DNA from: an uncultured Oscillospiraceae bacterium
Lineage (GTDB): Bacteria > Bacillota > Clostridia > Oscillospirales > Oscillospiraceae
DNA length: 64,000 nucleotides
Direction of reading: 5' to 3'
Assembly: GCA_947626495.1 (NCBI GenBank)
Contig: CANQSJ010000004.1
Span: 33,069 to 97,068 of the forward strand
Shown: in pieces, positions 4,790-24,100 of the stretch
Numbering within the stretch: position 1 is the stretch's first letter
Layout of the letters: the number at the start of each line of letters is the position of its first letter
The notes under the pieces: generated by a model
The model's database searches: none
Told to the model about the DNA's origin: nothing
What the model saw: only the letters and a program-made list of their open reading frames with translations
Program-made: the position numbers and the translations under genes

Positions 4790-4918
4790 AAGCGCTCCTT
4801 GCCTGTGCTGGATAAACGAATATATGCGGGGACATCTTATATGATGAACCGCCCCGGGATGCCGTCCCCCGGTAAAGCACAAGGGCGGCTTTCGCCGCCC
4901 TTGCGTCAAAAGAGATGA

Positions 4919-5944
<1,026 letters not shown>

Positions 5945-6008
5945 CTAAAAGAATTTGTTCTTTCGTGTGTCGGCCCCGATCTCTCCCGTCCGGAGGCCGA
6001 CCGGAGAT

Positions 6009-6016
6009 ATTATACA
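6009..6016 (-). promoter_or_regulatory. extended -10 element (TGTATAAT) upstream of gap
   Basis: Minus strand reads TGTATAAT about 75 nt upstream of the gap ATG. No good -35. A GC hairpin lies in the leader. Confidence 0.3.
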
Positions 6017-6211
6017 CCAACGTTCCCTGTATTTCCAGCATTATTTGAAAAAAAGAGGGATTTCCCATGATTATTTTGCACACTTGCTATATCGTTCCCC
6101 GCCGTCGCCGGTGGGGATTGCGCTTTCCGCCCATTTCTGGTATGATATCGACATGCACAACGGAAGTCCGTCCACGAATATGCGCGCCTGTGGGCACATA
6201 AAAGAGAGAGT

Positions 6212-7306
6212 ATGGATAAAGATATGAGCATACCGTCAGAGGCCCTGGGGGCGCTGTTCGAGATGAGCCGCGACCCTGTGATCGGCATCGACAGGACGGA
6301 CACCGTCGTGTTCGCCAACCCGCCTGCCGCCGCGTTTTTGAAGGTGGGCCCCGGCGCGTCCGCAAGGGATGTGGTGCCGGAGCACATCCTGGCCGAGCGG
6401 GCGGACCGGTTTTTGGCCACCGCCCGGATCGGCGGCTGCCGGTCCAGCGTATCGGTGGTGCGCATGGAGGGGATCGCCGCATGCACCTTCTCCCTGCCCC
6501 GGGAGCCGGCCGCCGTCGATCCCGGCGCCGGCGCGCTGCGGGAGCTGTCCTCCAGTCTGATGTCCGCGCGGCTGGCTATCGACGCGCTGGTGGGCCACAC
6601 CAATGCGGAGAGCGATCCCGTCCTGCGGGAGACCAGCGCCATCCTGTACAAGGAATATTACCGGCTGCTGCGGACCTGCCGGCACATGACCCTGGCCGCC
6701 GGGGTGGCGGCGGATGACCTGCCCTACAAGCCCCGGGTGACGGACCTGCGGGAGATGTGCCGCCAGCTGTGCGACACGGTGGGACGCCTCACCGACAGCC
6801 GCGGGGTATCGGTGGTGTTCCAGACCGATCCCGGGCTGCACCTGACCATGGCGGACCAGGACCTGCTGGAGATCATGCTTCTGAACCTGATGACCAACAG
6901 CCTGTTCCACTGCCGGGCCGGAGACACCATCCGCGTGGAGCTCACCCGCCGGGACGACCGGTTCATCCTGGCGGTGGAAGACCCGGGCAGCGGAATGTCG
7001 CCGGAGCAGCTCTCCCGGGTGTTCAGCCGGAGCCCCGGATCCGACGGCGTCGATCCCGGCGCCGGCGCGGGCCTTGGGCTCTATATCGCCCGGGGCATCG
7101 CCGAGCGCCACGGGGGCTCCGTGATTCTGGAGAGCCGCCCCGGCAGGGGCACGGCGGTGCGCATCTCCATCCCCTACCGGCAGTCGGAGGACATGACGGC
7201 GCACAGTCCTGCCCCCCTATATCGCAGCGACGGGATGAACAGCGTGCTGATGGAGCTATCCACGCTGCTGGACAAGAGCTATTACAACCGAAAGATGTTT
7301 GACTGA
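6212..7306 (+). CDS. soluble sensor histidine kinase (PAS-like N-terminus, HATPase_c C-terminus)
   Basis: N box LLNLMTNSLFH, G1 VEDPGSGM, G2 GAGLGLYIARGIAERHGGSV. No TM segment and no adjacent response regulator. Confidence 0.7.
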   Translation: MDKDMSIPSEALGALFEMSRDPVIGIDRTDTVVFANPPAAAFLKVGPGASARDVVPEHILAERADRFLATARIGGCRSSVSVVRMEGIAACTFSLPREPAAVDPGAGALRELSSSLMSARLAIDALVGHTNAESDPVLRETSAILYKEYYRLLRTCRHMTLAAGVAADDLPYKPRVTDLREMCRQLCDTVGRLTDSRGVSVVFQTDPGLHLTMADQDLLEIMLLNLMTNSLFHCRAGDTIRVELTRRDDRFILAVEDPGSGMSPEQLSRVFSRSPGSDGVDPGAGAGLGLYIARGIAERHGGSVILESRPGRGTAVRISIPYRQSEDMTAHSPAPLYRSDGMNSVLMELSTLLDKSYYNRKMFD

Positions 7307-10956: not shown

Positions 10957-12339
10957 TCAATGCACCGTCTGCGCCTTTTTCCGCCAGGCGCCCCGGCGGT
11001 AGGCGATCCAGGTCAGCAGCGCGCCCATGGCCCAGGAGATCAGCAGCGAGCCGAACAGCGCCTGGGGCTGGCCCTTGGGGAAGGCCTCCGTGCGGGTGAG
11101 CCATGCCATGCCGTAGGCGATGGGCACCCGCAGCACGATGGTACTGATCATGGTGATCCACATCGGCGTGGCCGTGTCCCCCGCGCCCCGCATCACGCCG
11201 CCCAGCACCTGGGTCACGGCGACGCAGATGTAGCCCACCGCCAGGATGCGCATCATGCGCACCGCCATGTCCATCAGCTCCGGGGTGTCGGTAAACAGAT
11301 CGAAGAGATACCGTCCGGCGAACAGCAGGATCGCCGTGATGGTGGCGGAGACGGCCAGGGCCATGGCGCTGCCCTGCTTTGTCCCCTGCTCCACCCGGTC
11401 CAGCCGGCCCGCGCCCACGTTCTGCCCGGCAAAGACGCTCAGGGCCTGGCCGAAGCTCATGTTGGGCATCATGGCGAAGCCGTCCACCCGCATGATGATC
11501 ACGTTGCAGGCCATCACCATCTCCCCCATGGTGTTGGTCAGGGACTGCACCACCAGCATGGCCACGGACATGATGCCCTGGGTGATGCCGGAGGGCACGC
11601 CCAGCTTTATGATCCGCCAGGCCGTATCCTTGCGCATGCGCAGGGTGTGCCAGTTCAGGTCAAATACCTCCCGCATGTGCAGCAGCTTCACGAAGCACAG
11701 CGCCGCGGAGATGGCCTGGGCGATGATGGTGGCCAGGGCCACGCCGGGCACGCCCAGACCGAAGCTTGCCACGAACCACACGTCCAAAAAGATGTTCAGC
11801 ACCGTGGCCAACAGCAAAAAGCCCAGGGCGGAGAAGGAGTCTCCCAGGCCCCGGAGGATGCCGGAGAGGATGTTATAGTAAGTAAAGCCCGCCGCCCCCA
11901 GGAAGAAGATCTTCAGATACTGCGCGCACCAGTCGAACACGGAATCCGGCGTGCTCAAAAGCCGCAGCAGCGGCTCGGTGATGACCACGCCGATGATCAT
12001 GGTGGCCACCGCGGTGATGGCCGCCAGGGTGACGCAGTTGCCGATGGCCTTGGACAGGCCGTCCCGGTCGTCCGCGCCGAAGCGCTGGCTGATGACGATG
12101 CCCGCGCCGGTGGACACGCCCACAAACACGGCCAGCAGCAGGTTGAAGATGGGCATACAGGTCCCCACCGCCGCCAGGGCGTTGTCTCCCACGTACTTTC
12201 CCACCACGATGGAGTCCACCGTGTTATAAAGCTGCTGGGCCAGATTGCCGATGAGCATGGGCACGGCAAATTCCATGATGCGTTTCCAGGGCGTGCCCTC
12301 GGTCATGTCCCTGGCGGTAAAGAGCTCCCGGAGCTTCAT
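10957..12339 (-). CDS. MATE-family efflux transporter
   Basis: About 460 aa, 12 TM. FAVPMLIGNLAQQLYNTVDSIVVGKYVG is MATE-typical. ATG at 12339 with GGAAGGA RBS. Confidence 0.85.
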   Translation of the reverse strand: MKLRELFTARDMTEGTPWKRIMEFAVPMLIGNLAQQLYNTVDSIVVGKYVGDNALAAVGTCMPIFNLLLAVFVGVSTGAGIVISQRFGADDRDGLSKAIGNCVTLAAITAVATMIIGVVITEPLLRLLSTPDSVFDWCAQYLKIFFLGAAGFTYYNILSGILRGLGDSFSALGFLLLATVLNIFLDVWFVASFGLGVPGVALATIIAQAISAALCFVKLLHMREVFDLNWHTLRMRKDTAWRIIKLGVPSGITQGIMSVAMLVVQSLTNTMGEMVMACNVIIMRVDGFAMMPNMSFGQALSVFAGQNVGAGRLDRVEQGTKQGSAMALAVSATITAILLFAGRYLFDLFTDTPELMDMAVRMMRILAVGYICVAVTQVLGGVMRGAGDTATPMWITMISTIVLRVPIAYGMAWLTRTEAFPKGQPQALFGSLLISWAMGALLTWIAYRRGAWRKKAQTVH

Positions 12340-12440
12340 TGTATCCTTCCCTTCTATCAATCATGCGTTTTATTAGTATAACACACGGTATTTTTGCGCG
12401 CAATATGAAAGGTCACGTATTTTCCTGTAAAAAGATAGAC

Positions 12441-13260: not shown

Positions 13261-13512
13261 ATGATAAAGATTTTGCTTTCCACCCTGCTTGGCGAGCGGA
13301 GGTGGACCCAGGCAGACCTAGCCCGTATGACCGGCATACGCCCTGGCACGATCAACGATCTCTATAACGAGATGGCTGAACGGGTGAACCTCGAACACCT
13401 GGATTTGATTTGTGACGCGCTCGGCTGCGATCTCTCAGACCTACTTATCCGCATTCCCTCGAGCGAGCCACAGACCAAATTCCGTACCGGCGCCAACCGG
13501 CCCGACAAATAG
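13261..13512 (+). CDS. XRE-family HTH transcriptional regulator
   Basis: LLGERRWTQADLARMTGIRPGTINDLYN is a classic XRE HTH. AAAGGAG RBS. TATAAT at 13193-13198. Confidence 0.8.
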   Translation: MIKILLSTLLGERRWTQADLARMTGIRPGTINDLYNEMAERVNLEHLDLICDALGCDLSDLLIRIPSSEPQTKFRTGANRPDK

Positions 13513-13525
13513 GCCCCCGTCAACA

Positions 13526-13549
13526 CCCCGGACGTTCATTCGTCCGGGG
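13526..13549. terminator. bidirectional terminator between convergent XRE genes
   Basis: CCCCGGACG-ttcatt-CGTCCGGGG followed by CTCTTT. Confidence 0.55.
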
Positions 13550-13553
13550 CTCT

Positions 13554-13763
13554 TTATATCTTGGTGCCATCCGCAAAAACGAAGTGGCACTCCAGCGTCG
13601 CGTCCACGGCTGCAGCAATCTTCTCCAGGTCTGCCATGGTCATGGTGCCACGCTTGATCTTCTGATTCAGATTGGACGGCGTTGTGTTGAGCCGTCTGGC
13701 CAGCTCGATCTGTGTTATCCCGGCATAGGAGATCGCCGTCTTAATAAGATTCTCGGTCGTCAT
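13554..13763 (-). CDS. XRE-family HTH regulator (repressor candidate for the divergent 7-gene operon)
   Basis: MTTENLIKTAISYAGITQIELARRLNTTPSNLNQKIKRG. ATG at 13763 with AGAGGGGG RBS. Confidence 0.8.
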   Translation of the reverse strand: MTTENLIKTAISYAGITQIELARRLNTTPSNLNQKIKRGTMTMADLEKIAAAVDATLECHFVFADGTKI

Positions 13764-13784
13764 TCGTATCACCCCCTCTATTAC

Positions 13785-13813
13785 AAAATACATGATTTTC
13801 TAAATTTAGTCAA
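13785..13813 (-). promoter_or_regulatory. sigma-A-type promoter of the 13763 XRE gene
   Basis: Minus strand: TTGACT (13813-13808), 17 nt spacer, TATTTT (13790-13785). The spacer contains the palindrome CTAAATTTAG. Confidence 0.45.
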
Positions 13814-13924
13814 GCCCAGGCTTAAAAAAATTTAGAGATTTCTTAAAATTCCTATTGACACAGTTTAGCGGATAGTGTATATTATTAAGCGTAAGCTAAA
13901 TTAAATTTAGTTTTTGCTAAATTC
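13800..13924. promoter_or_regulatory. repeated operator-like motifs CTAAAT / AAATTTAG
   Basis: CTAAATTTAG at 13800-13809, AAATTTAG at 13828-13835, CTAAATTAAATTTAG at 13896-13910, GCTAAATTC at 13916-13924. They flank or overlap both divergent promoters. Confidence 0.4.
13855..13883 (+). promoter_or_regulatory. strong sigma-A-type promoter of the plus-strand 7-gene operon
   Basis: TTGACA (13855-13860), 17 nt spacer, TATATT (13878-13883), with TG at 13876-13877 (extended -10). Confidence 0.55.
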
Positions 13925-13939
13925 AAGGAGGATTTGAAA

Positions 13940-14197
13940 ATGAAGATCAAGGAATACAGATCATGGTCAGTCACCGATGTACGGGCAATGTGCATCCGCG
14001 AGAATCTCTACACCGAAGGGACCAACGAGCAGTACGGAGCGATGTTCCGGATGGTCAACGATCTCACCCCGACGGTCGAGAACATCTACAAGGTGGCGAA
14101 GGACATCAACAGCCACAGCGAATTTCAGACCATCGAGAACATCATGTGCATGCTGGCCAACGACGTTGTCCGCTACGGATACGAGATCGAGGAATAA
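13940..14197 (+). CDS. hypothetical small protein A (85 aa)
   Basis: AGGAGG 8 nt before ATG 13940. Coding-like composition. No recognised motif. Confidence 0.6.
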   Translation: MKIKEYRSWSVTDVRAMCIRENLYTEGTNEQYGAMFRMVNDLTPTVENIYKVAKDINSHSEFQTIENIMCMLANDVVRYGYEIEE

Positions 14198-14243
14198 GAA
14201 GGAATCCCCCCGCGGAGGTCACGACGGGAGAAAGGAAACGAAA

Positions 14244-14771
14244 ATGTGCAAATTCTGTGAAAACTTCAATTTTGGCTCCGTTGGATATGACTTCGCCCTG
14301 GGTATAGGAAACATCTACTTCCCCTCCCACGCAGGCGGCGTTCCCGAGGAGGAGCGGTTCAAGTTTTGCCCCGTCTGCGGGCGGGACCTCTCGGCGGCCG
14401 GCGCCGAGGAGATGAAGCTGGTGTTCATCAAGCACCAGGAGGCGGACCGGGACGAGAAGCATTACGCCCGCGATACTTATTCCATCGGCAAGTACGACGT
14501 CTTTGTGGACGACACGACCTACGAGGACACCAGAAAAACCTACCGCAGCATCAGCGTTGTCCGCCCCTTCGATCGCACTGGCGCGGATCGGTATATCCCG
14601 GAGATCAACTACTGCGATGGGTTCTGGGATCACAAGAAGCCGCGCTTTGAAATCCAGACCACGTCGTATGGAACCCTGGGCGCCGAGGAATACGAGCTGT
14701 TCCTGGCAGCTCAGAAGCAGGCCGCGAAGGTGGCCAAGATACTGACCAAAGAGCTGCTCGAGAAGCAGTGA
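14244..14771 (+). CDS. hypothetical protein B (175 aa) with N-terminal CxxC...CxxC zinc-ribbon-like motif
   Basis: MCKFCENF...FCPVCGRDL. RBS GGGAGAAAGGA. The upstream part of ORF 13977..14771 overlaps gene A out of frame. Confidence 0.6.
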   Translation: MCKFCENFNFGSVGYDFALGIGNIYFPSHAGGVPEEERFKFCPVCGRDLSAAGAEEMKLVFIKHQEADRDEKHYARDTYSIGKYDVFVDDTTYEDTRKTYRSISVVRPFDRTGADRYIPEINYCDGFWDHKKPRFEIQTTSYGTLGAEEYELFLAAQKQAAKVAKILTKELLEKQ

Positions 14772-14788
14772 CCAGGGAGGTGGCGCGG

Positions 14789-14992
14789 ATGGATCGGTAC
14801 ATCGTTTCCTTGAAGGTCCTCGACACCCGGTATTATGACGGGACCCCCGCCGGATGGGAGCGGGCATACGAGGCAGCGGAGACAGTGTTTCTTAAAGACG
14901 TGACAGACATTGATGCCGCTGTCGAGGAATACCGGGCGAAGCTGCCCGCCGGAAGATATGAAGTGGACGACGTGAAATGGAGGAAGATTTGA
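14789..14992 (+). CDS. hypothetical small protein C (67 aa)
   Basis: GGGAGG RBS and ATG at 14789. Tight spacing within the operon. Confidence 0.5.
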   Translation: MDRYIVSLKVLDTRYYDGTPAGWERAYEAAETVFLKDVTDIDAAVEEYRAKLPAGRYEVDDVKWRKI

Positions 14993-14994
14993 CA

Positions 14995-15351
14995 ATGAGA
15001 AACAGCATTATTCGGGTACGTAACAGCAAGGGCGAGGGATGGCTGCCGGTGGCAGAGAGCAGCGCCGAATCTATGGCGGCATCCTACAAGAAGATTCTTC
15101 GCCAGAGCGAGCCTGACACGGAGGCGGAGGTATACAAGTCGGGGCGCGTCCCGTTCGCCGATCTCCCGGCGGACGTGCAGAAGAAAGTGGCGGAGATTCT
15201 GGACGCATTCACCGAGTGCTATGTGGAGTACTCCCTCGGACAGTTTACCGCATCTGCCGCGCTCGCGCTTCGGTCCAGCTATCCGCAAGACGACTTCCTC
15301 GCCGGGGCCTATCGCAAGACCAGCGGCCAGATCACAGTAAGGGCAATCTGA
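14995..15351 (+). CDS. hypothetical protein D (118 aa)
   Basis: TGGAGGAAG RBS and ATG at 14995, 3 nt after the stop of gene C. Confidence 0.55.
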   Translation: MRNSIIRVRNSKGEGWLPVAESSAESMAASYKKILRQSEPDTEAEVYKSGRVPFADLPADVQKKVAEILDAFTECYVEYSLGQFTASAALALRSSYPQDDFLAGAYRKTSGQITVRAI

Positions 15352-15396
15352 CATATCGCCCGCCGCGGAGGTTACGACGGCAAAGGAGGACACGCA

Positions 15397-15789
15397 ATGC
15401 AGACCATTAAAAACGACCGGGATTTCCGCGTCGGCTATGAGCTTTTGAGCATGATGACGGAGGCCATCGCCCAGGACGGCATGACCATCGAACGCTACCG
15501 GCGCATCACGTCGCTGAAACGTAATCTGAGGCAGTATGCAAACCGCGATACGCGCTTCGACCGCCGGATCATCAAGGACGATGGCATGGATGGCTTCATC
15601 GCCCTTGAGCGTATCCCGGACGACATCAAGGACCTGGACGAGGCCAAGAAGTATTTTGACCGGTTCATGTCATTCCCACGCACCAACGGCATGTATGACT
15701 GCACTGGCCGGCCGGTCACAAACTGGTTTAAGGTGTTCCGGCGCCTCGGCAGGTATTACGCATACCACAGCGTCAGCTTTGACGTATGA
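15397..15789 (+). CDS. hypothetical protein E (130 aa)
   Basis: AAAGGAGGA RBS. The C-terminal WFKVFRRLGRYYAYHSVSFDV resembles small proteins seen on Firmicutes mobile elements (from memory, not verified). Confidence 0.6.
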   Translation: MQTIKNDRDFRVGYELLSMMTEAIAQDGMTIERYRRITSLKRNLRQYANRDTRFDRRIIKDDGMDGFIALERIPDDIKDLDEAKKYFDRFMSFPRTNGMYDCTGRPVTNWFKVFRRLGRYYAYHSVSFDV

Positions 15790-15835
15790 CGGATAGCCTG
15801 TCCTACCGGGCCAACGGGGAGAAAGGAAGTCAACG

Positions 15836-16207
15836 ATGGTCGACAGAACACTGATGCGCGAGATCAAAAAGCTCACCGGCGACGGGAGCCGCGATGCGAA
15901 GTTCGCGCTGCTCCATAAGGTAGACGCCGCGGCGAAGGATTTGGCCGACCACCCCCGCGACCGTTTCCAGGACTGCATCAATACCCATGGCCGGGCGGTG
16001 GTGGCCATCTGCGTGGCAGCTACGCTCTATGAGCGGCGCGACAGACTGGACCACTGGCAGTTCAAATGGGCACAGGAAGTCCTGGGTATTCTTCCCGGAT
16101 GGACAGACGGGAACAGGCGCCGGGCCTACATAGACGACTGGGAAATGCACCCGACGGCAATATGCGACTACGCCGGGAAGACTATCAAACTCTGGACCGA
16201 ACAATAA
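15836..16207 (+). CDS. hypothetical protein F (123 aa), DUF3849-like
   Basis: GGGGAGAAAGGAA RBS. The pattern ...VAATLYERRDRLDHWQFKWAQEVL...MHPTAICDY resembles DUF3849-type domains of phage/ICE accessory proteins (recognition by eye). Confidence 0.55.
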   Translation: MVDRTLMREIKKLTGDGSRDAKFALLHKVDAAAKDLADHPRDRFQDCINTHGRAVVAICVAATLYERRDRLDHWQFKWAQEVLGILPGWTDGNRRRAYIDDWEMHPTAICDYAGKTIKLWTEQ

Positions 16208-16760: not shown

Positions 16761-17015
16761 TCAGTTTTCGGCCAGCCGCTCCCGTTGGAGCTCCTGGACC
16801 TCTTGAAGATCGTCCTGCAGGTCGCTGATCTGTTCCTGGATTCCTTCGGCCACATTCGCCAGCAGCTCCACTGGCAGGCTATCCCACAGCTCCCGGCCGG
16901 ACAGGGGTACAGCTGGAGGCGCCGGATCGGGCACCTGCCGCCCGCCGGTATCAAAGCCGAGGACAAAGGCGGCGGTCACCAGCAGGACCACCGCCAGCAC
17001 CCGGGCGGCTTTCAT
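16761..17015 (-). CDS. small membrane-anchored protein downstream of the endolysin
   Basis: MKAARVLAVVLLVTAAFVLG signal anchor plus an acidic coiled C-terminus. ATGA overlap with the endolysin stop. Confidence 0.55.
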   Translation of the reverse strand: MKAARVLAVVLLVTAAFVLGFDTGGRQVPDPAPPAVPLSGRELWDSLPVELLANVAEGIQEQISDLQDDLQEVQELQRERLAEN

Positions 17016-17911
17016 TTCTTGAACACTTCCTCAATGAGGGCTGCCAAGGTGTCGGCCCCGACCTCGCCGTCAGCACCCAGTCCGTGATCCTTCTGGAAGG
17101 CCTTGACAGCCGTCTCCATTCCCGCGCCAAACTCACCATCAAAGCCGTTGGGATCATACCCGGCGGCGTAGAGCAGCCCCTGGATGCAGCGCACGTAATC
17201 GCCCTTGTCCCCGATCTTCGCAGGATGGGCTTTCACCAGCGCCACGAAAATGCGCTGGAAGTTGGCGTCCTCGGTCTTGGTGCCGGGATCACCGTCCGGG
17301 TCCACGGCCAGCCACCGCTGCCAGTCCTTCACATATTCGGTCAGATCCTTCACGGACTCCGGGGTCGGGGCCGGCTCCTTCCCGCCACCAGACGAGCTGC
17401 CGCCATCATCATCGTACAGAGGATGGCCATACCCGGCGATATAAGAATCATTCCGGGAGTAGGTGTGCTGCTTTACGGCGTCGCCGCTGTTCCCCTCAAC
17501 GGTGCTGATGGTCGTTGCCGTCACCCCCACGCAAAGGCCGGTGTGCTCGAAGTCGCCGAAGAATACCTGATCGCCATACTTCGGCGTCTTATCGAACCTG
17601 CCCTTTGCCTTGAAGTAGTCTGCGCTGTTCGGGCAGGCGGCGCCCAGGTCACCACTCTGGCACTGCACCTTCTCGGCGGCGGCCTTGGAGCCATACGCCT
17701 TGAAGAAGCACCAGTCCACGAAGGAATCACACCAGGCGTACCCGTTCTTGTTGCCGTTGTAATACCCAGCGGCCGCGAGATCGCGGGCATACTTCGTCCA
17801 GTTGCCGCTGCCAGAATTGGCGGTGGGGTTATCCAGGTTGTTGTTGCTGGCCTTCTCGTGATACCCTACTTCCGCCAGGGCAATAGAAACGACTCTCTGT
17901 GCATTACTCAT
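17012..17911 (-). CDS. endolysin: N-terminal CHAP amidase/peptidase plus two C-terminal peptidoglycan-binding repeats
   Basis: GNWTKYARD...YAWCDSFVDW and FEHTGLCVG (Cys/His of CHAP). PG_binding_1-like ...GEFGAGMETAVKAFQKDHGLGADGEVG. ATG at 17911. Confidence 0.8.
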   Translation of the reverse strand: MSNAQRVVSIALAEVGYHEKASNNNLDNPTANSGSGNWTKYARDLAAAGYYNGNKNGYAWCDSFVDWCFFKAYGSKAAAEKVQCQSGDLGAACPNSADYFKAKGRFDKTPKYGDQVFFGDFEHTGLCVGVTATTISTVEGNSGDAVKQHTYSRNDSYIAGYGHPLYDDDGGSSSGGGKEPAPTPESVKDLTEYVKDWQRWLAVDPDGDPGTKTEDANFQRIFVALVKAHPAKIGDKGDYVRCIQGLLYAAGYDPNGFDGEFGAGMETAVKAFQKDHGLGADGEVGADTLAALIEEVFKK

Positions 17912-17970
17912 AAATACACCTCCAAAAAAAGATACCTGCACCTTTTTGAAAAAGATGCAGGTATGAAAAA

Positions 17971-18390
17971 TCACTCCTCCTGCGGCTCAGGCAGTTTGTC
18001 GCCCTCGACCTCGGGCAGGTTGGACATATTACTGAACACGCACGCCACCACGGAATAGCCCACGGTGGACGCCACCATGACCCAGTTTACGTCCGTGAAC
18101 AGAGCCGCGCTCCCGATGGCGCCGATGGCCGCCTGAGCCGCGGTGCGGATCACGCGCATACCCAGCGCACCCCAGTAGGTCTTGGCCCACTTCTCGCTGA
18201 ACTCGGGCAGGCTCACCACGCTGGTCAGCAGGGACACGATGCCCGCCAGCAGCGCAGCCAGTCCGCACTGAGGCCAGTTGACGCCGCCGATGGTGGACGC
18301 GCCGGCGATGCTGGACAGGCCCACCTGCCCGATGGTCTTGATGGCGCGGATGCCTGCGTCCTTCAGCCACTTCAAGAGCTTTTCTTTCAT
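17971..18390 (-). CDS. multi-TM membrane protein (second holin/antiholin candidate)
   Basis: 139 aa, 3-4 hydrophobic segments, GAGGAGG RBS. Lies between the holin and the endolysin. Confidence 0.5.
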   Translation of the reverse strand: MKEKLLKWLKDAGIRAIKTIGQVGLSSIAGASTIGGVNWPQCGLAALLAGIVSLLTSVVSLPEFSEKWAKTYWGALGMRVIRTAAQAAIGAIGSAALFTDVNWVMVASTVGYSVVACVFSNMSNLPEVEGDKLPEPQEE

Positions 18391-18425
18391 GGTAGAAATA
18401 CCTCCTCAAAAAATTTCAACGGCGA

Positions 18426-18860
18426 TCATTCATCGCCGCTGTTTTCATGCTTGGTCGCTTTCGCCGTCAGGATGTCGATGGCCTTGGTGATGGCTGCCGG
18501 GAGCGGCAGCCCCATGAGGCCGGCGTTCTCCACGATGGATATGACCTCGTTGGCCACGAAGCCGATCACCACGCTATCCCGGATATAATTCGTCCCGGCC
18601 AGCAGGTCCAGCCTGCAGGCGATCAGGACAATAAGCAGCGTCATTCCTTTCCGACACAGCCCTTTCCACCCGGCCCGGCTTTCCAGGGCCCCGTTCTCGC
18701 TTTTTTTCGAGGCGTGGAAAACCCCCGCCACAACAAGCCCGGATATGTAGTCGATGGCCATGCAGATCACGAGCGTCGTCAAGGCTGTGTCCCATCCTCC
18801 AAAAAGTGCCGCTATAGCGCCGCCGATGACGCCGGCGGCTGTGCAGATCGCAGTTTTCAT
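18426..18860 (-). CDS. phage holin (holin_4_1 family-like)
   Basis: MAIDYISGLVVAG...SKKSENG...GWKGLCRKG...VANEVISIVENAGLMGLPLP matches the conserved family pattern. Confidence 0.75.
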   Translation of the reverse strand: MKTAICTAAGVIGGAIAALFGGWDTALTTLVICMAIDYISGLVVAGVFHASKKSENGALESRAGWKGLCRKGMTLLIVLIACRLDLLAGTNYIRDSVVIGFVANEVISIVENAGLMGLPLPAAITKAIDILTAKATKHENSGDE

Positions 18861-18936
18861 TCTCCCCGTCCTTTCCCGGCATAGAAAAGGCGGCCCCGCG
18901 TCATGCGGGGTCGCCGTCATTTCCTGTTGTTCCTTA

Positions 18937-19611
18937 TCACTCCGCGAGCTCCACATAGAGTCCGACCAGGTCCTTCAGGTCGTTATACACCGGTATCCCG
19001 GTGTCGCGGTTGCAGTAATACGTCACACCGTCCTGGGAGTAATACTTGCCGTTCTCCAGGATCATGTTGCCGCTGTAGGGGATGGGGTCGTCCTTCGTGC
19101 CGGCGTGGGTCTCGTCGATCTTGGTCCAGAGGCTGGCAGGCACGTCCGGGGTGTGCGTGGCGATCACGTCGAAGGGGGCCTGAATGCTCTTATAGAGCTG
19201 CTCCTTGTACTGGCATTTCAGCCCAACCTTCTCCACGCGGGTGCCGACCAGGGACTCCCATGTGGGATAATACCGCCGCCAGCGCAGGGCCGTGTTGTCG
19301 TCCACGTCGATGGTGTTGATCTGGGCGGTGACCAAGGCGGCCTGTATCTCCTGCTGCACCTTGGTCTCGGGGTCGACATACTCCGGGTCGGCCATCATGG
19401 CCTGCTGGAAGTACACGTCGAAGTTGCCCTCGATGTCCACCAGCAGCCCGCCGGTGTCCGGGAGCTCCAGGTGATACTCGTCATACTCCCAGCCGCTTTC
19501 CTCGAAGGGCACGGCGTTGGCATAGAACCGGGCGAGGCACATCCCGGGCCGGTTCGGTATCGGCTCCACAGAGAAGGATGCGCTGGGCTGTCTGTCGCCT
19601 CTTACTCTCAT
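18937..19611 (-). CDS. hypothetical tail-fibre-associated protein (224 aa)
   Basis: GGGAGGA RBS 8 nt before ATG 19611. Lies between the DGR RT and the holin. Confidence 0.55.
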   Translation of the reverse strand: MRVRGDRQPSASFSVEPIPNRPGMCLARFYANAVPFEESGWEYDEYHLELPDTGGLLVDIEGNFDVYFQQAMMADPEYVDPETKVQQEIQAALVTAQINTIDVDDNTALRWRRYYPTWESLVGTRVEKVGLKCQYKEQLYKSIQAPFDVIATHTPDVPASLWTKIDETHAGTKDDPIPYSGNMILENGKYYSQDGVTYYCNRDTGIPVYNDLKDLVGLYVELAE

Positions 19612-19638
19612 GTCAGATTCCTCCCATGTTGTAAGTTC

Positions 19639-20838
19639 TCATGCGGCCGCCAAAAGGAGGCGGCTCTTTATGCGTACCACGTCCTTCAGCCGTCCCAGGC
19701 CGATCACGTCCACATACTTCTGCCGGGCCCGGAGGCTGTCGCAATGCTTCAGCTGCCCCGCCCGGCTCAGGAACCCGGCCGCTTGGGAGAAGGATATAGG
19801 CCGCCCGGCGGCGAGCCGTTTTTGGATACGTCGGCTCTGCCGGGTCAGGCGAAGAAAGTTCCGCTTTCTCAGCATCGTTTTTCCGTGGGCGAAGCGATAG
19901 CCCACCGCCGCCACCATGCGGGGCTTGCAGCGGGCCCTCTTGGCCTCGTCCCAGTTCTGGTGCGCCCGCTCCGCCGCGGGCGTGAAGGTCGTGCGGTATA
20001 TCTGCCAGTCGTCCTTCACGTCCAGGTCCAGCTCCTCCCGGAGGAATGCCCGGACCTCTTCGATTGCCCGGTGGAGCTTCCGCTTGTTCGGCCCCAGGAG
20101 GACCAGGTTGTCCATGTGCCGGGTGTGATACTTCACGCCCCGCGAGGGGTTCAAGAGGCGGTCCACAGGCTCCAGGTAGAAGTTGGCCAGCCACTGATTG
20201 ACATAGAAGCCGATCAGGAGCCCCCGGCGGTCGCCCACGACGTCCTCCCAGGTGAGGCTCATAACCTCTGCTTCCAGCAGGGTCAGGGGCTCGCAGGTGA
20301 TGATGATGGCCACCAGAAGCAGGAACTCCTTGTCCTTGATCTTCTGGGCCAGAGCCGTCATCAGCCGCCGCAGGGGGATGGAGCCATAAAAGGATTTCAC
20401 GTCCGCCTCCCCGGCGTACCGGGTCCCCTTGGGATCCCGGCGCATGACCGAGCATAGCCGCTTCCGAACACGAGCCCCGCCCCGGTTCGGGACGGAGGCA
20501 CAGGACCATGGGTCCATGCCGCGCATGAGCACGTCCATCATGGCCTGTGTCACCATGATGTGCATGAGCCCATCCGGGAAGAACGGAACGCTGTTCGTCT
20601 CCCGGACCTTCTGGCTGCTGGCGTCGTAGACCGTCCGCCCGTGAGCGGGCCGGGGCTTGAAACTCCGCTCCCTGACGATCTCCGCCATGACGTCGACGTA
20701 GAAGTCCTCGTGGTCCAGGACCTTCTTCACGTCACGCCGCCGGCGCTTTTCGCTGTCCATGGTCCCCACCCTTATGCAGTGGTGGATAAAGGCCGGGTCA
20801 GCCATCCGCGCATAGATGTTGCCTACTCTCTTCGGCAT
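19639..20838 (-). CDS. diversity-generating retroelement reverse transcriptase (399 aa)
   Basis: Start MPKRVGNIYARM (AAGGAG RBS). GLLIGFYVNQWLANFYLEPVDRLL aligns to the Brt motif GIPIGSLTSQLFANVYGGAVDRLL. TRHMDNLVLLG sits at the YMDD box. The TR lies directly upstream. Confidence 0.9.
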   Translation of the reverse strand: MPKRVGNIYARMADPAFIHHCIRVGTMDSEKRRRRDVKKVLDHEDFYVDVMAEIVRERSFKPRPAHGRTVYDASSQKVRETNSVPFFPDGLMHIMVTQAMMDVLMRGMDPWSCASVPNRGGARVRKRLCSVMRRDPKGTRYAGEADVKSFYGSIPLRRLMTALAQKIKDKEFLLLVAIIITCEPLTLLEAEVMSLTWEDVVGDRRGLLIGFYVNQWLANFYLEPVDRLLNPSRGVKYHTRHMDNLVLLGPNKRKLHRAIEEVRAFLREELDLDVKDDWQIYRTTFTPAAERAHQNWDEAKRARCKPRMVAAVGYRFAHGKTMLRKRNFLRLTRQSRRIQKRLAAGRPISFSQAAGFLSRAGQLKHCDSLRARQKYVDVIGLGRLKDVVRIKSRLLLAAA

Positions 20839-20970
20839 CAGGATATCACGCTCCTTGTTTGCCTTCGGCCCCGTCCGAACCCTTGCGGGCCTACTAGGTT
20901 CCGTCCTGATGGCAATATTTTCGCCATGTGGCGAGGAAAAGCCTGTGCGCGTAATCTGGAGCGTCCAAAC

Positions 20971-21106
20971 AAGGGGGCGGGCGCCGATGTTCGAGTTCGA
21001 GTTCGACGAGTCGTTGTTCGCGTTGAAATACCACCAGCCGCAATTCGAGCCATTGTTCCAGTTGCCACCGACGTGGAGCACGCGCCAACCGGAGTTGTAG
21101 TTCGCG
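20971..21106 (-). repeat. DGR template repeat (TR)
   Basis: 136 bp matching 21347-21482 at a constant offset of 376. It differs at 15 positions that are all A on the minus (coding) strand, plus one position in the GC-rich 3' end. Confidence 0.9.
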
Positions 21107-21305
21107 GCAGAAAGAGCACCGGCACCACTGCACAGACAGTCCCTTCCGAGGATTATATTCTTTTCCCTAGTGTCCATCCGAAAAACGTCATAAAATAACG
21201 TATTTCGTCATTTTTAAAACTCGTCACCGGGGCTTCGCCCCGGATCCCATGCGGCCCGGCGGCCCGCCGGTGGTCTTGCGCTGGCGGGCTACCGCTGCCA
21301 CAGCC

Positions 21306-21325
21306 CCGGGGGCTGCGGCCCCCGG
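21306..21325 (-). promoter_or_regulatory. GC hairpin 7 nt downstream of the target-gene stop (DGR homing hairpin/cruciform candidate)
   Basis: Minus strand: CCGGGGGC-CGCA-GCCCCCGG, a perfect 8-bp stem with a 4-nt loop. Confidence 0.5.
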
Positions 21326-21331
21326 TCCCCC

Positions 21332-24100
21332 TCAGGGGTCACGATAAAGGAGGCGGGCGCCGAGGTACGAGTTCGAGTACGACGAGCCGCCGCTCGCGCC
21401 GAAATACCACCAGCCGCAATACGAGCCATCGTTCCAGCCGCCACCGACGTGGAGCACGCGCCAACCGGAGCTGTAGTACGCGTAATCGGGAACATAGGTC
21501 GTCTCGCTGCCTCCCGTCTCGGAGGGATAGAACGCCCAGGGCATTTCCTCCGACATGCCGAGCGCCTTGATATAGCCATTGGACTGTGCCTTCGTGCCGA
21601 TCTCGGTGTAGTTCTCGTTGGTGTCGTCCTTGAATTTGGACGGATCGAGGCAGACGTAGACCTTGCCGTCGTTGAAGTTGACGCCGTCGATCCACCGGTA
21701 TATCGTGCCCCAGGGTGCTTCGATGTGCCGATACTGTACGGGCACCTTGTCGTCGGTCCCGTCTGGACGGCCTGTGTGGTAGGCCATGGCGTCCGTGCCG
21801 CCGGTGTTTATGGCGCCGGAGTTGCTGCTGTTGGAGTAGCCCTTGCCGATCTTCTCTTGGCAGTTGAAGTCTGCATACTCCACCAGGTAGAGCAAGCACT
21901 GGGCGGCCCAAGCGGCAAAATCTTCAATCTGCCAGCCGGTGCCCTTCTTGGCGCTCTCCTCCCGGGCGGTCTTCCTGGTGATGTTCACCAGCGGCGCCTT
22001 TGCGGAGATCGACACATAGCCGCTGCTGATATGATACCTGCCCACATAGCAGTTGCTGCCGGGGTGAAGGGTGACGCCATCCTTGGCCCCGTCCGCTATG
22101 TAGAAATACCGCTTTTTCTCGTTGGAGACATCCTTGACGGCGAAGTAGAACGTGGGGATATAGACCATCACGTCCTTCTCCGTCCGGGAGAAGCCCTCGG
22201 TCCCGCTCTTGGTCTTGACGCCCTCGGGGGTGATGTTGTACTCCTCCATGCCGGACCAGGGCATACAGGTGTCAAAGGGGGAGCTGCCGACCGAGGAACC
22301 GACGGCGGCCTGGGGCTCCTCCGACACCTCCGCGGTGACCAGGTTGTTCGGGTCGTCGTCCTTCTTGAGCCTGGTCAGGGCCGTGGACTCGGCGCCGTAG
22401 TTCCAGCAGACGCCCCAGATCTTCACATAGTCCAGCTTGATCTCATAGCCCTTGTACTCGGTGGCCTCGACAGTTCCTTCCGCGGTCTCCTCGTTGAGCG
22501 TGACCGTGACCTTCCAGGTCCCCAGCTTCGGCAGATACCACTTCCGGGAGCCCAGCGTGACCAGGCCGGTCAGCTGCGTCCCTTCGCATTCCAGGGCGGC
22601 GTTGGATCCAGCCGTGGCGGTGACGGTGATCGTGGGGAAGGTGACCTCGGCCGAGTAGCTGTGGCCCTTCTCGTTCACGTCCACTGTTTCCTGAGAGGAC
22701 GTGGCACCCTCCTTCGTGGCCTTCACGGTGTAGGTGCCGGCCTTGGTGATGGTGAACTCCACCGTCCCGCCGTCCTTGACCGTGTCCTCGTAGCTCTCGC
22801 CGCCGTCCGCGCTCGCCGTGACGACGGCGTCCTTTTCAGCCGTCACGGTCAGCGTGGCAGTGAAATAGGTGATGGTGACCTCATAGGCTTTGTACTCCTC
22901 GACCGTCACCGTGTCTTCGGCGGTGTCCCCGTCCTTCTCGGCCTTGACGGTCCACTCGCCCAGCTCGGGCAGCCAGAAGGTCACCGGATCGCCGGTGCTC
23001 TCTTTTTCAATGCTGGTCTCGCCCTTGCTGACAGTGATCGTGCTGCCGGACTCCACGGTGACCGCCAGGGTGATGAACGCGACCTCGGCGGTGTACTGGC
23101 CGCCATTCGAGTCGACCTCGACGCTGGCATCGTTGGAGGTGGCGCCGGAATACTCGGCCGTGACCTCCCATGTCCCGGATTTATAGAGTTGCAGCGTGAC
23201 CTTGCCGCCCTCTTCGGCGCGGCCGGTCGCTGTCTCGTCGCCGCAGGTGGCCGTCACCTCCGCGCCGTCCACCGCCGTCACTTCCAGCGTGGCGGCGAAC
23301 ATTTCCAGGTGCACGCTCTGCATGCCGAAGTACGGGCCCGTGACCACCTTCACGGCGTAGTCATGGCCATTGCTGCCCTGGGCCTTCACCGTGTAGGTGG
23401 TGCTCGGCATGTGGCAGTTCACGAACGCCTCCAACTCCTCCGGGACGGTCCCTGTGTAGGTCTCATCCTGGCCATCCGTGACGGTGTATTCCTTGCCCTT
23501 GAAGCCCTCGTCAAAGGTGATGGTGAGCCCGCAGCGCACCGCGTTCTTGGCTGCCTCTTCTGCCTCCTGGACGGACTTATCCAGCTCGGCTTTGTAGTCC
23601 TCGAACCGGCCGTCGAACTCGTCATAGAAGCCCTGCATGGCCTTCTCCATAGCCTCCATGGTGACGCAGTTGCTCGGGTCGATCACCACCGTGATCTCGG
23701 CGTCGTTCTTCAGGGACACGATGCCATAGAAGGTATACAGGAAGTCGGGAGTCTGGGAGGCCGCGGGGATGTCCACGCCCTCCTCATACTGATAAAGGCA
23801 CACCAGAGTAAGCTCGCCATCTTCCCCGGCCTTTCCCCAGAAGCCGATCTGATTGGCCTTGTACTCCTCCGTGTGACCGCGCACCTGCACACCGATCCGC
23901 CGGCCACCCTCCACCGCGTTGTTGGCCATGATGGACGCTTCCTGTTTCTCGTTCACCAGGGACGTCTGTTCCTTCAGCTCCTCAGCTGAAACGGTGCCGG
24001 TGCCGAAGGTGGCCTTGCATATACTGATCTTCTCCCCGTTAAGGGCCCTGGCAATGAGGTCGTCACCGGTGTTGGTCACGCACCCTATCCATCTGCTCAT
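21332..24100 (-). CDS. tail fibre / receptor-binding protein, DGR target (922 aa)
   Basis: N-terminus resembles the phage tail-collar fibre domain. Five ~70-aa beta-rich tandem repeats follow. The C-terminal Trp/Gly/Tyr-rich CLec-like domain ends in the VR. AGGAGGA RBS. Confidence 0.9.
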   Translation of the reverse strand: MSRWIGCVTNTGDDLIARALNGEKISICKATFGTGTVSAEELKEQTSLVNEKQEASIMANNAVEGGRRIGVQVRGHTEEYKANQIGFWGKAGEDGELTLVCLYQYEEGVDIPAASQTPDFLYTFYGIVSLKNDAEITVVIDPSNCVTMEAMEKAMQGFYDEFDGRFEDYKAELDKSVQEAEEAAKNAVRCGLTITFDEGFKGKEYTVTDGQDETYTGTVPEELEAFVNCHMPSTTYTVKAQGSNGHDYAVKVVTGPYFGMQSVHLEMFAATLEVTAVDGAEVTATCGDETATGRAEEGGKVTLQLYKSGTWEVTAEYSGATSNDASVEVDSNGGQYTAEVAFITLAVTVESGSTITVSKGETSIEKESTGDPVTFWLPELGEWTVKAEKDGDTAEDTVTVEEYKAYEVTITYFTATLTVTAEKDAVVTASADGGESYEDTVKDGGTVEFTITKAGTYTVKATKEGATSSQETVDVNEKGHSYSAEVTFPTITVTATAGSNAALECEGTQLTGLVTLGSRKWYLPKLGTWKVTVTLNEETAEGTVEATEYKGYEIKLDYVKIWGVCWNYGAESTALTRLKKDDDPNNLVTAEVSEEPQAAVGSSVGSSPFDTCMPWSGMEEYNITPEGVKTKSGTEGFSRTEKDVMVYIPTFYFAVKDVSNEKKRYFYIADGAKDGVTLHPGSNCYVGRYHISSGYVSISAKAPLVNITRKTAREESAKKGTGWQIEDFAAWAAQCLLYLVEYADFNCQEKIGKGYSNSSNSGAINTGGTDAMAYHTGRPDGTDDKVPVQYRHIEAPWGTIYRWIDGVNFNDGKVYVCLDPSKFKDDTNENYTEIGTKAQSNGYIKALGMSEEMPWAFYPSETGGSETTYVPDYAYYSSGWRVLHVGGGWNDGSYCGWWYFGASGGSSYSNSYLGARLLYRDP
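21347..21482 (-). repeat. DGR variable repeat (VR) at the 3' end of the tail-fibre gene
   Basis: See TR. Encodes YSSGWRVLHVGGGWNDGSYCGWWYFGASGGSSYSNSYLGAR, versus TR-encoded NSGWRVLHVGGNWNNGSNCGWWYFNANNDSSNSNSNIGAR. Confidence 0.9.

Follow-up and report, generated by a model that had tools for sequence, protein, structure and literature searches.

A compact diversity-generating retroelement without avd, predicted to rewrite the tail-fibre tip of an Oscillospiraceae prophage

Introduction

In a 64,000-nucleotide stretch of DNA from an uncultured Oscillospiraceae bacterium (the window), a reverse transcriptase (RT) gene adjoins two similar repeats, one of which lies at the 3' end of a prophage tail-fibre gene. 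Does this locus constitute a diversity-generating retroelement (DGR), and is the fibre still being rewritten? The earlier note, made from the sequence alone, read it as mutagenic retrohoming from a template repeat (TR) into the variable region (VR) of a receptor-binding protein. The analyses described here indicate, with a probability of about 0.9, a complete and compact DGR in a contractile-tailed prophage that rewrites the receptor-binding tip of the tail fibre; this copy may be active at present, as its lineage is. Tail-fibre DGRs of gut phages are already heavily catalogued, as far as the available text of two surveys goes (PMC8144416, PMC5758913). The element is an ordinary member of this well-surveyed class, but its RT belongs to a lineage that lacks avd and has an unusual active-site motif.

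Results

A repeat search returned a single 136-nt direct repeat with a spacing of 376 and 88% identity between the copies (Table 1). Base-by-base realignment reproduced the coordinates and offset previously proposed for TR and VR together with their 16 differences. Fifteen of these lie on TR adenines of the coding strand (T on the plus strand), namely at 20988, 20991, 21003, 21011, 21014, 21015, 21017, 21023, 21024, 21045, 21054, 21062, 21063, 21095 and 21102, so that 15 of the 29 adenines are substituted. The probability of at least 15 of 16 differences falling on 29 adenines in 136 nt is 3.2e-11 (hypergeometric), and the claimed adenine-specific asymmetry is borne out. The VR carries G at ten of the substituted positions, T at four and C at one; the lone non-A difference is at 20975 (C in TR, T in VR), opposite VR 21351. 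All 29 TR adenines occupy codon position 1 or 2 of the VR frame, with 12 AAY codons; adenine substitution cannot turn any of the 17 variable codons into a stop, and the possible peptides number ∼1.3e17. The 922- and 399-residue open reading frames are as claimed, and the peptide strings quoted for TR and VR agree with the translations. Scored at non-A positions only, no further TR copy was found in the window. The TR of an 85%-identical relative (L124) is 94% identical to that of the window and keeps the 29 adenines.

Table 1. Features of the cassette; positions are those of the window.
Feature	Position	Strand	Remarks
DGR reverse transcriptase, 399 aa	19639-20838	-	Brt sequence and fold match; phrog_1423
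TR-RT spacer, 'Sp' part of DGR RNA	20839-20970	-	Length conserved
Structured RNA, Rfam RF03021 RT-18	20851-20933	-	61.5 bits vs gathering score 41.3, full model
AACAAG, 3' strand of candidate long-range helix	20854-20859	-	Abuts RT Shine-Dalgarno GGAG (20851-20854)
CUUGUU, 5' strand of candidate long-range helix	20968-20973	-	TR 3' boundary; RNAalifold
Template repeat (TR)	20971-21106	-	136 nt, 29 coding-strand adenines
GC hairpin CCGGGGGC-CGCA-GCCCCCGG	21306-21325	-	Just 3' of VR; recurs in relatives
Small hairpin CCCC-TGA-GGGG	21328-21338	-	Encloses fibre stop codon; conserved in relatives
IMH-like GC-rich VR 3' end, ACCTCGGCGCCCGCCTCCTT	21347-21366	-	TR end ..GCCCCCTT; one non-A difference (21351 vs 20975)
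Variable region (VR)	21347-21482	-	Fibre codons ∼873-918; 3' end 12 nt short of stop codon
Target gene, 922-aa tail fibre	21332-24100	-	Gene order, PHROG matches, AF2 fold

On the minus strand the cassette reads fibre gene with VR, GC hairpin, ∼200 nt, TR, RT-18 RNA and RT; the window ends inside the prophage. The target gene occupies the position of P2 gpH, following GPW_gp25 (gp25-like), Baseplate_J and Tail_P2_I, and genes for the sheath, tube and tape measure lie earlier within the same minus-strand cluster. The protein comprises an N-terminal attachment domain, a repetitive β-sandwich shaft and, distally, a C-terminal receptor-binding domain of C-type-lectin fold within which the VR lies, with the TR adenines placed to avoid stops. 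PHROG tail fibre families match residues 8–167 and 8–255, and phrog_5302 ('tail protein') matches residues 532–920. An AF2 model of residues 533–922 (pLDDT 88) has TaqVP (E 6.5e-10), TvpA (2e-2) and Mtd (3.7e-4) as the top three distinct PDB fold matches of the C-terminal domain, at TM-scores of 0.3–0.5 and 10–15% sequence identity, values that point to a shared fold class without implying close similarity. The modelled fibre tip thus has the C-type-lectin fold known from variable proteins of DGRs. These data agree with the proposal that the VR target is a prophage tail fibre. The protein database held no relative of the fibre tip closer than 60% identity.

The lone non-A mismatch is position 5 counted from the 3' end of the repeat. 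A set of 82 related TR/VR pairs has 52 non-A mismatches, of which 18 fall 3–6 nt from that end. The mismatch therefore sits where those of the relatives cluster, supporting the earlier remark that IMH and IMH* are expected to diverge beside the GC-rich end. Two hairpins follow the VR. The smaller one is kept as CCCC-TAAT/TGA-GGGG in the loci printed out (L001, L008, L016, L029, L045 and L097). The GC hairpin motif occurs within 70 nt past the VR in 78/82 related loci and past the TR in 0/82, and is missing from a DGR-less relative (L122); by analogy it is a putative counterpart of the target-site hairpin or cruciform of the Bordetella phage DGR. A GC-rich IMH unlike IMH*, together with a hairpin after the VR only, would mark the target site.

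The TR ends 132 nt before the start of the RT gene. Brt (8ub7) is the best PDB match of the RT by sequence (E 8.5e-7 with the single sequence, 5e-15 with a profile) and by fold (E 5.5e-17, TM 0.83), and group II intron, retron and DRT enzymes rank lower. phrog_1423, a PHROG RT family, matches the protein at 220 bits; Pfam RVT_1 scores 23.4 bits, under the gathering cut-off of 29.6. The likeness to Bordetella phage Brt noticed earlier thus stands for sequence and fold, but the enzyme is non-canonical: it has HMDN, no accompanying avd and a basic, helical C-terminal extension (residues 301–399, pI 12). The canonical DGR motifs [LIV]GxxxSQ and YxDD are not matched; motif 3 is E144-A-D146, motif 4 IGFYVNQ and motif 5 H-M-D243-N244. 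Both [YH]MDN and IGxYx[CN]Q are conserved throughout the 120 closest RT homologues, the motif 5 D-to-N change covaries with K-to-E in motif 3, and the window RT retains all family-invariant residues. HMDN (for YMDD) and IGxxxNQ (for IGxxxSQ) are lineage traits; the conserved HMDN is compatible with activity and no sign of decay.

Other assignments of the RT were tried and rejected. For a group II intron, Rfam gave no group II match in the window, TIGR04416 reached 51 bits against a cut-off of 300, and Brt was better by fold. For a retron, DRT or Abi enzyme, PADLOC gave generic RT matches of at most 57 bits and the retron model 15 bits against 235; genes for the phage tail and for lysis surround the RT gene.

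The spacer between TR and RT has a median length of 126 nt in the relatives (range 110–160) and holds a structured RNA of the kind associated with DGRs, here Rfam RT-18. Compensatory changes were seen at 12/16 predicted RT-18 pairs among 53 distinct spacers. RNAalifold, applied to 36 TR-end-plus-spacer sequences, predicted a long-range CUUGUU/AACAAG helix that is 94% paired; sliding the partner strand lowers the pairing to 36–74%. There is weak covariation, GC>UA in 3 sequences. The helix is a candidate template:primer duplex. A search around the cassette gave neither a sigma-70-type promoter nor an intrinsic terminator.

Between VR and TR, the coding strand has no open reading frame of at least 26 residues apart from the ends of the neighbouring fibre and RT-frame ORFs that reach into the interval, and none of the 23 small ORFs scanned in the window had an Avd-like Pfam match. 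The accessory gene avd is present in ∼74% of DGRs. Cassettes without it are a recognised architecture, accounting for 29% of a curated set and including 'Architecture A' (PMC5758913). Avd's part as a scaffold may be played by the RT, through its strongly basic C-terminal extension, or by the RNA.

The comparison set comprised 121 related loci from Oscillospiraceae, other Clostridia and gut viral contigs, across which the compact target-TR-RT layout recurs. Of the 80 loci with at least 700 nt of upstream sequence, 74 show this layout with an A-biased TR/VR pair. Mismatches fall on TR adenines in 1058/1109 cases (95%), a figure conditional on detection since repeat pairs below 75% A-bias were discarded by the DGR finder; because 74/80 loci yielded such a pair, this detection bias is limited. 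Mismatches are thus concentrated on one base and not spread over all four, in the relatives as in the window. Adenine specificity is equal for loci with xxDN RTs (679/712, 95.4%) and xxDD RTs (410/430, 95.3%). The earlier note had suggested looking in related genomes for VR polymorphism confined to TR adenines. For 133 pairs of loci whose TRs share at least 97% identity (TR-TR difference 0.28%), the VRs differ at 50.7% of TR-A positions and at 0.78% of the others. This divergence shows the lineage to be active in nature. This RT and TR occur on four contigs, and an identical fibre protein is likewise encoded on four; the only one of these contigs that was read (L123) matches the window at 100% identity, VR included. 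Of the proposed mutagenic retrohoming, the DGR anatomy and the diversification of the lineage were thus confirmed; VR change at this locus was not observed, the sole contig read being identical.

Discussion

The question of whether these repeats need a DGR at all is readily answered. A duplication of the fibre 3' end could have diverged by point mutation or gene conversion beside an unrelated RT of a group II intron, retron or defence system, and the best NCBIfam match is indeed a group II intron RT, albeit far sub-threshold, with weak generic RT/DRT matches from PADLOC. Such divergence does not explain why 15/16 differences hit a single base in just one of the copies (P = 3e-11) or why the TR adenines are confined to codon positions 1 and 2. 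Moreover, Rfam gives RT-18 only, with no group II intron or retron RNA, Brt is best by fold and sequence, and the arrangement recurs in 74/80 relatives. The duplication reading is effectively refuted.

A DGR that diversified the fibre in the past may have become inactive in this copy, with HMDN/NQ crippling the polymerase or an accessory factor missing, and the VR frozen. This would fit the replacement of the second Asp of YxDD by Asn, the absence of avd and the identical VR in identical contigs. The last point says little about freezing, as the contigs may be one strain. The active-site motifs are conserved in the 120 closest homologues, xxDN loci are as adenine-specific as xxDD loci, and it is a mostly-xxDN locus set that shows VR-VR divergence at adenine positions. 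The RT frame with its family-invariant residues, RT-18, the hairpin and all 29 TR adenines are also intact, and we regard a relic as very unlikely. It is unlikely, too, that the element functions only if an accessory protein, Avd-like or not, is provided in trans by the prophage or the host genome beyond the scanned ORFs. Avd is essential in the Bordetella BPP-1 system (PMC6182149), and the scan covered 23 small ORFs of a window that ends inside the prophage. However, where a cassette lacked avd, Wu et al. detected no copy of it elsewhere in the genome (PMC5758913). In the 121 loci, VR, TR and RT are spaced too closely to fit another gene, and the gene directly downstream of the RT is a normal fibre neighbour that a DGR-less phage has too.

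A self-contained, compact DGR is thus the favoured reading. By analogy with the Bordetella phage DGR (PMC6182149; bioRxiv 10.1101/2023.10.23.563531), the TR-spacer transcript would fold around the RT, and cDNA synthesis would be primed in cis from the spacer near the TR 3' end, possibly through CUUGUU/AACAAG. The RT would misincorporate opposite template adenines, and the cDNA would replace the VR in a direction set by the IMH-like end and flanking hairpin. New receptor specificities for the phage would be the expected outcome.

Like the Bordetella phage BPP-1 DGR (mtd-avd-TR-brt), the element is phage-encoded, with the VR at the 3' end of a receptor-binding gene of C-type-lectin fold and the TR just upstream of the RT behind a structured spacer of ∼130–140 nt. 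The two also share a GC-rich IMH-like end and flanking hairpin at the VR, adenine-specific mutagenesis and the RT fold. Unlike BPP-1, the window has no avd between VR and TR, and its IMH and IMH* differ by one base only. The RT is 399 residues long with its C-terminal extension, compared with 328 in BPP-1, and differs in motif 5 (HMDN vs YMDD), motif 4 (IGFYVNQ vs IGSLTSQ) and motif 3 (E-x-D vs K-x-D). C-terminal extensions are reported for ∼20% of DGR RTs (PMC5758913). The spacer RNA is RT-18 in the window and RT-10 in BPP-1, where it was shown between TR and brt (Weinberg et al., 2017, PMC5737381). In that study only RT-10 is tied to a DGR and the other RT motifs are merely speculated on; RT-18 occurs immediately upstream of an RT gene, as it does here.

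Compared by description, the element resembles gut-virome DGR clades 1, 4 and 6 (Roux et al., 2021, PMC8144416), which are viral and belong to gut Firmicutes/Bacteroidetes phages. According to the available part of that paper, their targets are tail proteins whose VR domains have the C-type-lectin fold, and their activity is widespread in metagenomes; the same part yielded neither the term 'Avd' nor RT active-site variants. Lineage 3A with its CH1 accessory gene is Bacteroides-associated (PMC5758913), whereas the present clade is found in Oscillospiraceae and other Clostridia. Here, unlike in the solved Thermus aquaticus TaqVP, Treponema TvpA and Bordetella Mtd, the variable domain forms a single polypeptide with a long phage fibre shaft. 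In its target-TR-RT core, phage context and lack of an accessory gene, the cassette resembles 'Architecture A1' and the avd-lacking lineages (Wu, Gingery et al., 2018, PMC5758913).

Prophage setting and gene order

Read along the minus strand, the genes run GPW_gp25-like, Baseplate_J, Tail_P2_I, the 922-aa tail-fibre ORF, a 225-nt gap, the template repeat (TR), a 132-nt spacer, the 399-aa reverse transcriptase (RT) ORF, a 224-aa ORF, two holins and a CHAP/PG-binding endolysin. With the tail, capsid and terminase genes listed in the table, this gene set therefore identifies a contractile-tailed prophage with a P2-like baseplate. The first 12 kb or so are occupied by host genes, that for a MatE transporter among them, and the prophage continues past the right end of the window. 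Neither an integrase nor a tRNA was found in the window. The DGR/fibre module is followed directly by the lysis cassette, which carries holins of two families (Phage_holin_4_1 and r1t-type) and an endolysin with CHAP and PG_binding_1 domains.

Features of the diversity-generating retroelement (DGR) and its surroundings, in window coordinates
Feature	Position	Strand	Remark
GpU, tape measure, tube, sheath, major capsid protein E, decoration protein, lambda-type portal, gpA-type terminase	higher coordinates	-	earlier in gene cluster
922-aa ORF (tail fibre)	21332-24100	-	carries VR
Fibre shaft modules	22400-23600	-	diverged tandem modules
Variable region (VR)	21347-21482	-	3′ end of fibre gene
Small hairpin CCCC-TGA-GGGG	21328-21338	-	immediately 3′ of VR; encloses fibre stop codon
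GC hairpin CCGGGGGC-CGCA-GCCCCCGG	21306-21325	-	immediately 3′ of VR
GC hairpin CCGGGGC-GAA-GCCCCGG with short U-tract (GTTTTA)	21215-21246	-	between VR-side hairpin and TR
Template repeat (TR)	20971-21106	-	
CUUGUU	20968-20973		straddles TR 3′ boundary
AACAAG	20854-20859		just 3′ of RT-18 core
RT-18 RNA (RF03021)	20851-20933	-	
512-aa ORF	19639-21177	-	TR fused to RT
399-aa ORF (RT)	19639-20838	-	
224-aa ORF	18937-19611	-	
Lysis cassette	17012-18956	-	
Small ORFs	13261-16207	+	probably lysogeny module
Host/prophage boundary	near 12.4-13.3 kb		
MatE transporter	10957-12360		host gene

Template adenines account for the differences between the repeats

The region contains one long direct repeat, two copies of 136 nt lying 376 nt apart with 88% identity. 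Base-by-base comparison gave 16 differences, 15 of which are T on the plus strand, and hence A on the coding (minus) strand, of the RT-side copy; the sole exception is a C/T difference at 20975/21351. Adenines make up 29 of the 136 TR positions, and the chance that at least 15 of 16 differences land on them is 3.2e-11. An earlier note had listed the same 16 positions and read the locus as a DGR. All of its coordinates were reproduced exactly, the asymmetry of 15 in 16 was confirmed in full on recomputation, and its reading is correct: the element is a real DGR. The substitutions comprise ten A>G, four A>T and one A>C, with 14 TR adenines unchanged. Further copies of TR or additional VRs, scored at the 107 non-A positions only, were absent from the 64 kb.

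VR covers about codons 873–918 of the fibre. In the VR frame, 13 TR adenines occupy codon position 1, 16 occupy position 2 and none position 3. Of the 17 variable codons, 12 are AAC or AAT and none is able to mutate to a stop, so that the template is stop-proof; this layout is textbook DGR template design. The computed theoretical repertoire of VR is ∼1.3e17 peptides.

The fibre N-terminus matches PHROG tail-fibre families and the last 390 residues match a PHROG tail-protein family. An AlphaFold2 model of these 390 residues (pLDDT 88, pTM 0.89) has as its best three distinct PDB neighbours Thermus TaqVP (E 6.5e-10), Bordetella Mtd (3.7e-4) and Treponema TvpA (0.02). These are the three classic DGR variable proteins, and the fibre tip is accordingly modeled as a lectin-fold target. 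The shaft contains direct-repeat families about 435–440 nt apart, and residues 424–479 give a weak CarboxypepD_reg-like match; together these suggest a string of β-sandwich domains.

The reverse transcriptase is Brt-like and no avd gene was found near it

General family models recognize the RT poorly: Pfam RVT_1 scores 23.4 bits, under the cut-off of 29.6, and NCBIfam and PADLOC give weak generic matches only. A PHROG phage-RT family matches at 220 bits. The closest solved structure by sequence is the RT of the Bordetella phage DGR, Brt (8ub7; E 8.5e-7 with the single sequence and 5e-15 with a family profile). The AlphaFold2 model of the RT (pLDDT 86.7) also finds the active state of Brt as its best fold match (E 5.5e-17, TM 0.83 on Brt, rmsd 3.3 Å), with G2L4, group II intron, DRT9 and retron RTs ranking lower, and Rfam matched no group II intron or retron RNA in the window. 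On these matches, the RT does not fall with the group II intron or retron enzymes, the grouping that the earlier note had named as contrary to its reading. A search of GenBank phages for relatives of the RT returned none above ∼35% identity.

The prototype accessory gene avd was sought between VR and TR, where the coding strand holds no ORF of 26 aa or more, save the overlapping ends of the fibre and RT-frame ORFs; nor did any of 23 small ORFs in the window match an Avd-like family. Compared with Brt, the RT is about 70 residues longer. Its residues 301–399 contain 26 K/R against 3 D/E (pI 12), form four extra helices in the model and include some of the most conserved residues of the family. 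This basic C-terminal extension may stand in for the nucleic-acid scaffolding provided by Avd.

A structured spacer RNA and a hairpin confined to the variable side

The sole Rfam family above its gathering score in the window is RT-18, matched over the full-length model at 61.5 bits and ending in the Shine-Dalgarno GGAG of the RT. RNAalifold recovered its helices from 53 distinct TR–RT spacers of relatives, with compensatory changes in 12 of 16 pairs. In BPP-1, the phage that carries Brt, Weinberg et al. (PMC5737381) located RT-10 at the equivalent position; a link of other RT motifs to other DGRs was speculation on their part.

Two hairpins follow VR. A relaxed form of the GC-hairpin motif occurs within 70 nt after VR in 78 of 82 related elements and after TR in none of the 82, and this VR-only hairpin is inferred, by analogy, to match the role of the hairpin/cruciform that marks the BPP-1 recipient site (PMC3240598). 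Non-A mismatches between TR and VR of relatives also concentrate near the repeat end, 18 of 52 lying 3–6 nt from the 3′ end, and the single one in the window is at position 5. This agrees with the suggestion of the earlier note that the mismatch marks divergence between the 3′-end markers IMH of VR and IMH* of TR.

RNAalifold on alignments of the TR end and spacer also predicted a long-range helix of CUUGUU with AACAAG, 94% paired against 36–74% in slid controls. Covariation is thin, amounting to one G-C to U-A switch in three sequences, and the helix is offered with low confidence as a candidate template:primer duplex. Pairing of the GC-rich end of TR with a conserved spacer GCGCAGG was dropped, as neither inspection by eye nor duplex folding gave consistent covariation.

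A promoter and terminator scan of 19400–21500 found none. The second GC hairpin, between the VR-side hairpin and TR, was not called by the consensus terminator scan, and the AT-rich stretch at 21150–21215 has no sigma-70 promoter match. This hairpin may end the fibre transcript or start the DGR RNA unit.

Open reading frames flanking and overlapping the cassette

The 512-aa ORF that fuses TR to the RT was rejected as fortuitous, since just 13 of 80 relatives keep this frame open and the true start is marked by RT-18, GGAG and ATG. It is nevertheless annotated as a gene in at least one public source (ENA; P0270), a trap by which TR is concealed within a CDS.

The 224-aa ORF is acidic. In 101 of 114 loci its N-terminal ∼100 aa come directly after the RT, and the ORF there usually measures only 121–140 aa; the copy in the window has an extra C-terminal domain. 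That C-terminal half matches 'carbohydrate binding domain' proteins of crAss-like and other gut phages. In phage MT835573.1, a 51%-identical fibre is followed 15 nt on by a homologue of the ORF, and TR, RT and GC hairpin are lacking. The ORF was considered as a lineage-specific accessory gene and rejected because this DGR-less phage carries it after the fibre and its C-terminal half matches proteins of unrelated gut phages. It is instead the normal neighbour of the fibre, with the TR–RT cassette sitting between the two, and may act as a chaperone for the fibre or as a second receptor-binding protein.

In the fetched piece of that phage (L122, MT835573.1 3787–16032), the fibre at 4289–5986 ends in a VR-like lectin tip (GYNSGWRVLSVGGGRDYGSSSGMFCF...) and the homologue lies at 6001–6345. 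No TR, RT or GC hairpin was found within 6 kb of this fibre. Either this is a relative with no DGR, or the cassette has been lost from it; the comparison shows that the GC hairpin goes with the cassette rather than the fibre.

Relatives of the element diversify in nature

A word-indexed search returned 684 RT homologues at E ≤ 1e-3, and 121 loci were fetched from species-representative genomes and IMG/VR; the genomes include Oscillospiraceae, Dysosmobacter, Flavonifractor, Lawsonibacter, Agathobaculum and other Clostridia. For one relative, P0001, no called gene is on record. A simple self-BLAST DGR finder requiring at least 75% A-bias detected a repeat pair in 74 of the 80 loci whose sequence extends 700 nt or more upstream of the RT. 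Their layout does not vary, with median gaps of 233 nt from VR to TR and 126 nt from TR to RT. When the loci that have both a detected pair and a mapped RT start are pooled, 1058 of 1109 mismatches (95.4%) fall at TR adenines, a figure conditional on detection at ≥75% bias. Independent of that filter, in 133 pairs of loci with a TR identity of at least 97%, the VRs differ from each other at 50.7% of TR-A positions and 0.78% elsewhere, and the TRs themselves differ at 0.28%. The lineage is therefore diversifying in nature.

The RT plus TR of the window (P0270) and the identical 922-aa fibre (P0271) are each present in four contigs. The one contig compared (L123) matches the window at 100% identity across 11.5 kb and has the same VR, and the other three were collapsed with it as similar; the nearest other fibre tip has 60% identity. 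The nearest RT relative (85% identity, P0002 contig) has a TR 94% identical with all 29 adenines kept, and its contig ends before VR. By its sequence, the window element appears to be an intact DGR, with diversification seen at the lineage level, from relatives.

An active-site variant with covarying residues

The RT departs from Brt at three motifs. In motif 5, Brt Y-M-D215-D216 aligns to H-M-D243-N244; in motif 4, IGSLTSQ aligns to IGFYVNQ; and in motif 3, where Brt has K136-x-D138 together with YMDD, the window RT has E144 and D146. Across the relatives P0001–P0269, the variant (E144, D146, N214-Q215 and H241-N244 in the window RT) reads [YH]MDN for YMDD and IGxYx[CN]Q for IGxxxSQ.

The HMDN motif might signify a dead RT. 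This was rejected because the trait is conserved and occurs alongside active diversification: [YHNQ]MDN is found in 120 of the 120 closest homologues, motif 5 ends in xxDN in 84 and xxDD in 35 of 121 loci, and mismatches lie at TR adenines in 95.4% of cases in xxDN loci and 95.3% in xxDD loci. The motif-3 residue two before the catalytic Asp varies together with the final residue of motif 5. The pairs counted in 144 diverse 50%-cluster representatives are K/D 90, E/N 23, Q/D 16, Q/N 5 and E/D 0 (Fisher P = 8e-21, a test that ignores phylogeny). The E/N pair is seen at several separate places on a rough NJ tree, apparently as independent co-occurrences. We read K-to-E with D-to-N as a coupled substitution that would keep the enzyme functional. 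In the literature that was searched, YMDN is mentioned neither alongside DGRs nor alongside reverse transcriptase.

The fuller reading is tentative, and we give it a probability of about 0.3: that the RT belongs to a large, naturally active, Avd-less DGR lineage combining a rewired active site (the second Asp of YxDD changed to Asn in step with motif-3 K-to-E), the pI-12 extension and RT-18. Should the Glu either provide the lost carboxylate or form a pair with the Asn, and should the extension substitute for Avd, the element would be a self-contained 1.9-kb TR–RNA–RT module. If true, the lineage would be a natural experiment on which RT active-site features set adenine infidelity.

Discussion

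By analogy with BPP-1, the TR–spacer RNA would wrap the RT, cDNA synthesis would be cis-primed from the spacer with misincorporation at template adenines, and the cDNA would replace VR, guided by IMH and the hairpin (PMC6182149; bioRxiv 10.1101/2023.10.23.563531).

A tail-fibre DGR in a gut prophage is one more of tens of thousands catalogued and alone changes nothing. For specialists, the points of interest are the E...MDN active-site variant, RT-18 as the spacer RNA of the lineage, the conserved VR-side hairpin and the minimal single-protein cassette. The clade offers a very compact cassette (VR end, hairpin, TR, RT-18 RNA and one protein) for studying Avd-independent retrohoming; natural sequence variants are plentiful, the structured RNA is defined and the conserved active-site variant is open to point mutants. 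A minimal single-protein DGR would also suit the DGR-based targeted mutagenesis tools under construction in E. coli.

The element is of a known kind, a phage tail-fibre DGR with a lectin-fold target and an Avd-less architecture, in the gut-virome setting described by Roux et al. (PMC8144416). The Avd-less layout corresponds to 'Architecture A', which accounts for 29% of the DGRs in a curated set; Wu et al. reasoned that some Avd-independent mechanism must exist, and in 2018 posed Avd-independent mutagenic retrohoming as an open mechanistic question (PMC5758913).
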